From Acetobacteraceae bacterium (GTDB lineage Bacteria > Pseudomonadota > Alphaproteobacteria > Acetobacterales > Acetobacteraceae), in contig JBIPLY010000619.1 in the NCBI GenBank assembly GCA_044369385.1, forward strand, positions 18 through 64,017: 64,000 nt of DNA, in the 5' to 3' direction. Below, piece after piece: positions 13,501 through 13,598 of the stretch. Both the position numbers and the translations under genes were made by a program. How positions within the stretch are numbered: position 1 is the first letter of the stretch; each line of letters starts with the position of its first letter. A model generated the notes under the pieces. That model did not search any database. It was not told the origin of the DNA and saw only the letters and a list, made by a program, of their open reading frames with translations.

Positions 13501-13598
13501 GCCACGTGCACCATGTAATCTTCTTTTATAGGGGTAATGCCATCACGTGGCACGCTTCCAAAATCCCCGCACATTCGACCCCGTAAACGTTACAGCCA
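13501..13598 (+). repeat. CACGTG quasi-palindromic element, copy E3
   Basis: gccacgtgcaccatgtaatcttcttttataggggtaatgccatcacgtggcacgcttccaaaatc...cgttacagcc, ending 16 nt before the spike gene ATG. Confidence 0.9.

Follow-up and report, generated by a model that had tools for sequence, protein, structure and literature searches.

The focal copy of the repeated element described here, E3, lies on the + strand at 13498-13602 of the window (the whole 64,000-nt stretch of DNA that was analysed) and closes with a G-poor leader that runs up to the ATG of the spike gene at 13614. Before the leader come, in order, a left box, CCACGTG (13502-13508), TTTTATAGGGGTAA at 13524-13537, a spacer (13538-13542) and the right box TCACGTGGCAC (13543-13553). 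Nine copies, each about 105 bp long, were recovered by a repeat finder, a nine-way alignment and an nhmmer profile, in the places that the initial annotation had given for them:

E1, 3291-3395, - strand: forward, between two - strand genes, after the stop of 3399-4244 and 40 nt upstream of a 227-aa gene (2568-3251); orthologues in L009-L012
E2, 11655-11760, + strand: reversed, between the - strand 172-aa gene 11759-12277 and the tail lysin gene 9075-11573
E3, 13498-13602, + strand: focal copy, upstream of the spike gene
E4, 23096-23200, + strand: forward, downstream of the gpI-like gene, heading a module of about 400 nt with a TGCG array (23295-23505)
E5, 38991-39095, + strand: degenerate and antisense, in frame within a 1243-aa replication gene (about aa 1109-1144)
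E6, 46862-46963, - strand: divergent region between a 253-aa gene (45956-46717, - strand) and a portal-like gene (46994, + strand)
E7, 58488-58592, - strand: divergent region between the Dam methylase block (- strand) and the tail-chaperone genes (+ strand)
E8, 59399-59501, - strand: reversed, between the chaperone genes and the tape-measure gene
E9, 62709-62814, + strand: forward, beginning 3 nt past the tape-measure stop, with a 153-aa gene downstream at 63099

The window belongs to a lytic-type cyanomyovirus, a phage with a contractile tail and a genome of about 68 kb. PHROG and Pfam matches to structural proteins include the sheath, tape measure, baseplate J and I proteins, spike, tail lysin and a portal-like protein; other matches include a split large terminase, helicases, a clamp (gene at 36913-38052), RNR and methylases. 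No close relative was found among GenBank phages, and the window contains neither tRNAs nor Rfam matches. Its nearest cultured phages are cyanobacterial myoviruses, with a sheath identity of 33-39%, and the frequent occurrence of GCGATCGC presumably also reflects a cyanobacterial host. Because contigs with exactly the window's proteins link its end to its start, the map is circular and measures about 68 kb. The roughly 4.3 kb outside the window contain no tenth copy of the element, which therefore occurs nine times per genome, and are too small for a large polymerase. Among about 60 ORFs scanned, we found no RNA polymerase, sigma factor or transposase. Mor/C, Ogr/Delta, gp55-like and gp33-like proteins were not detected in these ORFs by Pfam and PHROG, and the only DNA-binding candidates were two KilA-N proteins (6223-6990 and 56760-57239) and two weak HTH matches (ORFs 28239-28580 and 50905-51501). 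The phage showed neither integrase nor repressor. For the 227-aa, 253-aa, 637-aa and 153-aa genes that neighbour elements, Pfam, PHROG and PDB were uninformative.

Several other features of this genome were recorded. The Terminase_6N and Terminase_6C ORFs are set apart by a KilA-N protein and a 312-aa ORF (ORFs of the region: 5194-6195; 6223-6990, the KilA-N protein; 7016-7954; 8064-8663), and in the L018 lineage the two terminase halves are adjacent, without the insert. A GGDEF-EAL protein (cyclic-di-GMP turnover) is encoded at 638-2320, at the end of the tail-fibre block, and many metagenome contigs show an identical protein. Canonical GC-rich intrinsic terminators lie at 56529-56562 (bidirectional, with A- and T-tracts) and at 23510-23545, the latter ending the - strand operon 23560-28161. 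A two-copy repeat of about 110-150 nt, unrelated to the CACGTG family, occupies 15745-15898 and, inverted, 57228-57338. Its copies are 81-85% identical, internal hairpin arms are present (15714-15760 and 15770-15816), and the repeat is conserved in L002, L005, L012 and L013.

The CACGTG family is real and functional. Its core pattern, TATARGGGKAANNNNNTSACGTGGCA, matched the window nine times, against none expected from 100 shuffles, and allowing two mismatches gave no extra match. Eight of the nine copies are intergenic, as had been reported, although intergenic DNA makes up only 9.4% of the window (P≈5e-8). The near-identity of four copies over about the first 65 nt was likewise seen in our repeat search, E1 and E3 being 97% identical over 66 nt. 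The description of the core as two perfect CACGTG boxes holds for five copies (E1-E4 and E9) but not for E5-E8, in which the left box reads CATGCG, CATGA/CACGTA or CACATG. The window contains 19 CACGTG sites against 20.6 expected. Elements account for 13 of them, and the six outside are fewer than the roughly 20 expected there (P=2e-4). This depletion could reflect avoidance of stray regulator sites or of a host restriction site. The 3' half of the element forms a second imperfect palindrome (A-tract...T-tract) that is perfect, over 15-16 bp, only in E8. On the consensus strand the 3' arms are G-poor (12-20% G), in which they resemble sense-strand leaders, with the exception of E8, where the skew is reversed. 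The centre of E6, CCTTTATATAAGGG, is nearly palindromic, and GGGTAA is invariant or nearly so across 19 unique copies. The orientation of the copies is mixed.

We compared the window with a relative represented by L002 and L005, from one Logan sample, whose sheath and spike are 92% and 94% identical in amino acids. E2, E3, E7, E8 and the start of E9 keep their place and orientation there; all orthologous sites examined were occupied, with orientation unchanged. Third codon positions are only 57% identical between the two, synonymous sites being nearly saturated, so neutral DNA should be near-randomised. Identity within the element was uneven: 98% in the right box TCACGTGGCAC (43/44) and 90% in the TATA-GGGTAA block (57/63), against 71% in the left part (105/147), 70% in the 3' half (155/220) and 40% in the hypervariable 5-nt spacer between the blocks (8/20). 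By copy, the identity of the 3' half was 0.89 in E2, 0.75 in E3 and E8, and 0.44 in E7. The left CACGTG box is weakly conserved and is degenerate in several orthologues too. These uneven segment identities indicate that the selected unit is an asymmetric bipartite motif of 27 bp, TTTATA(TA)RGGGTAA followed by five free bases and TCACGTGGCAC, and not a symmetric pair of CACGTG boxes. Judged from these alignments, strong purifying selection acts on the 27-bp motif, whose TATA-type part resembles a -10 element.

E2 of the window contains a 79-nt insertion that is absent from the relative and was copied from the upstream flank of E4; the copied stretch takes in the very end of the gpI-like gene and includes a good left box. 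E9 of L012 is chimeric, with an E6-type left half, and E7 of L002 has a spacer of the E1/E3/E4 type. Just past E9, identity to L012 and L009 climbs to 0.97-0.99, and the divergent block before E9 has its other edge inside the tape-measure gene. In these alignments the E2 insertion, the mosaic copies and the identity step fit homologous exchange between copies, not transposition. On a larger scale, neighbouring regions alternate between about 97% and 85% identity, which points to a mosaic phage population; the 109-aa gene 57452-57781 is absent from the variant L012, and the length of the tape-measure gene varies (879-1042 aa).

The initial annotation had named a MITE-like repeat as the alternative to a promoter, and we weighed a selfish miniature element (MITE- or PATE-like) whose regulatory effect would be incidental. 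Such an element would suit a set of nine similar copies, four of them near-identical, with one in frame inside a gene and mosaics in which one flank was copied between loci, but homologous recombination accounts for the mosaics. The two ends, GCCACGTG... and ...ACAGCCGTTTT, are not inverted copies of each other, so terminal inverted repeats are lacking, and no target-site duplication is seen in the nine-copy alignment. Exact-core scans of IMG/VR and of the GTDB genomes (185,579 species genomes) gave 0 matches each, so that copies in host genomes did not appear, and the ORFs scanned hold no transposase. The JGI metagenomes also gave 0 matches, a negative that is weak because L009-L013 carry the element yet were missed (exact matches are present in L009, L010, L012 and L013). 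Presence, place and orientation agree between the window and the L002/L005 relative, although synonymous sites are nearly saturated, and the interior is under strong purifying selection. With positions fixed and the interior selected, the mobile-element explanation is largely refuted, and we consider it highly improbable.

Read in the consensus direction, three of the nine copies (E2, E5 and E8) run antisense to the genes around them. Gene types faced by some copies include Dam methylase and lipoprotein-like genes. The - strand ORF 11759-12277 shows identities of 0.90/0.98/0.62 at its codon positions and is a real gene; E2 is therefore, like E8, antisense to both neighbours in the consensus orientation. 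E5 does lie within the replication CDS, where it had been placed, and is moreover translated in frame. Its site in the 1243-aa protein, where homology to relatives stops, is a junction between domains or between fused parts. The C-terminal stretch of about 100 aa of this protein (38685-39000) has no counterpart in homologues, whose alignments end near aa 1100, and the tail beyond E5 may be a once-separate small gene fused via the element.

Related cassettes were found in two other cyanophage lineages. The uncultured L006 lineage (spike 50% identical), together with five contigs from one JGI metagenome (L014-L018), has eight copies of an element of about 135 nt with the layout GTGTCCG-N16-TATATAGG-N6-CGGACAC. 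Behind this come, in order, a hairpin region that varies, the word TTACAGCC, which the 3' arm of the window element also has, an A-run and a third box. Copies with resolvable context point forward, their targets being the spike region, a portal-like gene and an operon that encodes both terminase halves together with proteins of 81 aa and 136 aa. One copy is reversed and lies 3' of a chaperone homologue, like E8.

The cultured Leptolyngbya phage Lbo402-yong5 contains 11 copies of GTCCACTT-N37-AAGTGGAC, with the consensus GTCCACTTGACCACATTGATAGACGCGATGCTAATAGAAAAGCCGAAGTGGACA. TTGACC is overlapped by the left arm and the interior TGCTAATAG has the extended -10 form; the right arm would, by its position, fall just past the start site. 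In the orientation homologous to the window consensus, 8 of the 11 copies face a gene, and the genes faced include those for terminase, scaffold, tail tube, lysozyme, baseplate wedge and DNA polymerase. Every one of the 11 copies has two perfect 8-bp arms, and the three pairs arranged back to back would fold into hairpins of about 59 bp. The two phages share inverted arms that flank a TA(T/A)ATAG centre at a distance of 36-37 nt from each other, similar left halves (CCACTTGACCACATTGAT in the window, CCACGTGCACCACATAAT in Lbo402-yong5) and 9-11 copies per genome, placed at gene-block boundaries in both orientations. Lbo402-yong5 differs from the window in its arm sequence, its near-consensus promoter motifs (TTGACC and TGCTAATAG), the lack of a long 3' arm, the paired copies at three loci and the presence of an integrase. 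Across the three lineages the arms differ yet change as a pair and the TA(T/A)ATAG centre is kept, whereas the spacing from centre to right arm varies (11, 6 and about 9 nt). A similar family was not found in Nostoc phage YongM, and no homology indicative of a shared HTH regulator was found between the window and Lbo402-yong5. Our literature search found no paper describing the window repeats or the Lbo402-yong5 cassettes; the window family and those of the two other cyanophage lineages form a previously undescribed family.

Next, we considered structure in RNA. Fold energies favoured the strand opposite the consensus in most copies, but RNAalifold gave no consensus structure across copies on either strand, and the asymmetry arises because the base composition is G-poor. 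On these grounds we rejected a conserved structure in RNA from that strand, which holds only for E8 and E2. E8 possesses a perfect hairpin (arms 59399-59413 and 59427-59441, loop 59414-59426). Compared with the relative, its 15-bp arms are conserved at 28 of 30 positions and its 13-nt loop at 0 of 13 (P=3e-9). Read on the sense strand of the flanking tail genes, both changes within the arms still pair, as G.U, and each strand ends in a U-run. In E2 a weaker A-tract/hairpin/U-run lies on the sense strand (alifold -8.4 against -0.9). With Rfam 15, no match in the whole window reached the gathering score, and a permissive scan added nothing but noise below the threshold, from miRNA hairpins aligned to the E8 stem.

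These results bear on a possible role in RNA, in which the element would work between transcription units, irrespective of orientation, by terminating transcripts, insulating the units or offering a site for RNase processing. Since the arms are inverted repeats, a transcript crossing either way can form the stem GCCACGUG...CACGUGGC, which would act jointly with the second hairpin. Both orientations are found between co-directional genes, one strand of the 3' halves folds better, the hairpins of E8 and E2 have been kept as structures, and the perfect arms and back-to-back pairs of Lbo402-yong5 are in keeping with such a role. However, identity of the left arm is 71% against 98% for the right arm, with only the neutral-like spacer and the 3' half as low or lower. 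In E5-E8 and several orthologues the left arm has degenerated, which often breaks the long-range stem, and the TATA-GGGTAA motif, which would be the loop, is better kept than this arm. No U-run follows the right arm, and the missing RNAalifold consensus, the compositional source of the asymmetry and the lack of Rfam matches also count against a role in RNA, which we judge unlikely.

E4 faces only the TGCG array downstream of the gpI-like gene, in agreement with the initial annotation, and E9 heads a paralogous module with an array at about 62900-63100. Motif spacing in both arrays is about 11.5 nt (period 23 = 2 x 11.5). More distant relatives have arrays with an 11-nt period and a different unit (L003 8782-9277; L008 1735-1892). 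The TGCG arrays look like iterons (perhaps an origin plus a second cis site) or protein-sponge RNA. It has to be considered, then, whether the elements are DNA-level binding sites with no part in transcription, serving as auxiliary sites for a replication initiator or in genome organisation and acting with the two arrays in the manner of an ori and a cis-replication region. The paralogous element-and-array modules with their 11.5-nt period, the similar arrays of relatives, the mixed orientation of copies and the depletion of the box elsewhere in the genome are compatible with this proposal. It is opposed by the seven copies that lack an array, by an orientation that follows no compositional skew, and by a centre homologous to the extended -10 motif of Lbo402-yong5 and to the motif just upstream of a gene start. 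We regard such a role as improbable. An orientation set by replication direction was also rejected, as no skew pattern was seen.

A promoter or regulator-binding site shared by the copies, as the initial annotation had guessed, is the best-supported reading, given the selected 27-bp motif and the sister cassettes that lead into genes. TATATAG occurs four times in the window, three times within elements and once ahead of the sheath-tube block, 25 nt before its first gene, which encodes 637 aa; at this site the 92% relative reads TATATGGGTAGTAAT. The block of 637-aa, sheath and tube genes has no cassette, only this bare TATATAG. A palindrome, TGACAGGTCA, at 51594-51603 precedes the bare TATATAG by about 25 nt. 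It has been kept in L002, takes the form GACGGGTCA in L003, a relative with 61% identity, and may be a separate regulator site. A second repeat, GTTTTGTGTATAAT (extended -10, sigma70-type), lies directly upstream of six - strand blocks that contain replication, nucleotide-metabolism and methylase genes:

26318-26331, - strand: GTTTTGTGTATAAT site
33389-33402, - strand: GTTTTGTGTATAAT site
38619-38632, - strand: GTTTTGTGTATAAT site
45402-45415, - strand: GTTTTGTGTATAAT site
51510-51523, - strand: GTTTTGTGTATAAT site
58404-58417, - strand: GTTTTGTGTATAAT site

This second family is probably an early or middle promoter class. As it is separate from the CACGTG family, the genome appears to have two promoter classes, of which the CACGTG class would be later or specially regulated. 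Several observations argue against a simple late promoter: E2, E5 and E8 are antisense, the sheath block has no element, E4 faces only a non-coding array, and the Dam gene that E7 faces has its own sigma70-type TGTGTATAAT promoter (58404-58417). The attribute 'late' in the initial annotation is plausible but only by inference, with the antisense copies and the sheath block speaking against it. It may also be wrong because the Lbo402-yong5 family precedes a DNA polymerase gene as well.

No promoter was called at the core by a sigma70 scan; the final T that sigma70 promoters conserve is missing from the -10-like motif TATATAG, and CACGTG occupies the -35 position. Other known sites were tried and rejected. 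A promoter for a T7-type single-subunit polymerase, suggested by the resemblance of TATAGGGG to CACTATAGGG, is at odds with a genome that closes at about 68 kb without a polymerase. A sigma54 promoter, suggested by TGGCAC in the right box, lacks the GC element at -12, and to our knowledge cyanobacteria have no sigma54. No match to NtcA, CRP or HLR1-like host sites was seen on sequence inspection. Promoters of SigF, a group 3 sigma factor, have GGTAA/GGGTAAG at -12 and, about 15 nt further upstream, TAGGC at -32 within AG-rich sequence (PMC2532724). In the window the -12 element matches and the -32 element fails, the sequence at that distance upstream of GGGTAA being ATGTA, and the sister families (TATATAGGAGAAAA and TAATAGAAAAG) lack GGGTAA.

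On balance, we lean towards the view that the element is a phage-specific promoter-operator cassette, which would place about nine transcription start regions under one control. We infer that transcription in the consensus direction is favoured, from the pointing of the sister families, the bare TATATAG before the 637-aa gene and the G-poor 3' arms. Host RNA polymerase would start a few bases downstream of TATA(TA)RGG in this direction, which would put the left box near -35 and the right box, invariant in sequence, near +5 to +15. A putative sequence-specific regulator, probably encoded by the phage, would bind the two boxes. Regulator-bound boxes would set this class apart from the sigma70-type TGTGTATAAT promoters that serve the replication genes and probably make it a delayed or late one. 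In the forward copies (E1, E3, E4, E6, E7 and E9) the 3' arm would become a G-poor, unstructured leader into the next gene or the TGCG array. In the reversed copies (E2, E8 and possibly E5) the same arm would be kept as an A-tract/hairpin/U-run, terminating transcription of the upstream gene and blocking the antisense transcript of the cassette itself. The quasi-palindromic TATATA core may also fire toward the downstream gene in reversed copies. As a side effect, recombination takes place at the repeats.

Among known systems, the PeSLs (promoter-early stem-loops) of T4-type phages are repeated intergenic composites of about 100 bp that combine a promoter with a stem-loop terminator (PMC2839356, PMC4122927), and their copies act as points of homologous exchange between relatives (PMC2839356). 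The window elements resemble them as intergenic composites of similar length between a stop and the next start (nine copies of about 105 bp, 8 intergenic), and in the recombination of copies with indels or module swaps, of which the insertion at E2, the E9 chimera of L012 and the step in identity just past E9 are examples. In contrast, PeSLs have a consensus sigma70 early promoter, complete with -35, -10 and an AT-rich region upstream, and place the stem-loop before it, lack operator-like inverted boxes and flank non-essential ORFans in hyperplastic regions, whereas the window elements have a core that is not a sigma70 consensus, are flanked by inverted boxes and lie among core structural genes. 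The hairpin arm of the window elements is on the other side in most copies and comes to lie upstream only in a reverse reading of the element. Reversed copies thus run from a terminator-like hairpin through the core to the next gene, which is the PeSL layout, although a convincing hairpin is present only in E8 and a modest one in E2.

The Ogr-dependent late promoters of P2 and the C-dependent late promoters of Mu form small sets of similar promoters before the structural operons of contractile-tail phages, each with a weak -35 region and an activator site of dyad symmetry. The ORFs scanned here yielded no homologue of Ogr, Delta, Mor or C, which leaves room for a divergent activator. The conservation in the window spans about 100 bp and extends beyond the presumed start, and several copies are antisense or do not precede structural genes. 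T4 late promoters carry TATAAATA at -10 and depend on gp55, gp33 and the sliding clamp; the window motif is TATA(TA)RGGG (reverse strand TATAAAAG, 6/8), and a clamp gene is present but no gp55 or gp33 was detected. The analogies to Mu C sites and T4 late promoters drawn in the initial annotation are accordingly not established. In the archaeal halovirus HF2, intergenic repeats of 29 and 58 bp carry promoters (PMC8707807). They share with the window repeated, AT-rich intergenic promoter motifs across a tailed-virus genome, but lack flanking inverted boxes and a hairpin arm. The 'stoperators' of mycobacteriophage L5 and the conserved inverted repeats of phiC31, 13-17 bp long, are genome-wide sites for lysogeny repressors. 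They are comparable in that one regulator, whose binding is here a prediction, would serve many copies of one short site near promoters and gene boundaries throughout a genome, but they are not contained within a 100-bp composite cassette.

A broader proposal covers the freshwater cyanophages represented by the window myovirus, the L006 lineage and Lbo402-yong5, and we put it forward tentatively, as possible but doubtful. It holds that these phages share a previously undescribed organisation of transcription, in which each regulated promoter would come in a portable cassette and the two inverted arms would form the operator of a phage regulator, arms and regulator co-evolving within each lineage. 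Reversed copies would act as terminators or give short, terminated antisense RNAs, and transcription of the iteron-like arrays from E4 and E9 would couple this promoter class to replication.

The transcriptional programmes of non-T4 cyanophages are almost unknown. If the promoter-operator reading is true, the cassette would stand for an entire class of promoters and give a lead to its regulator, and transcription units would become readable from sequence in uncultured relatives. As a sister family is present in the cultured pair of Lbo402-yong5 and Leptolyngbya boryana, the model can be tested experimentally now. Mobile regulatory cassettes, so far known from T4-type phages, would thereby be extended to another virus group and to core structural genes.
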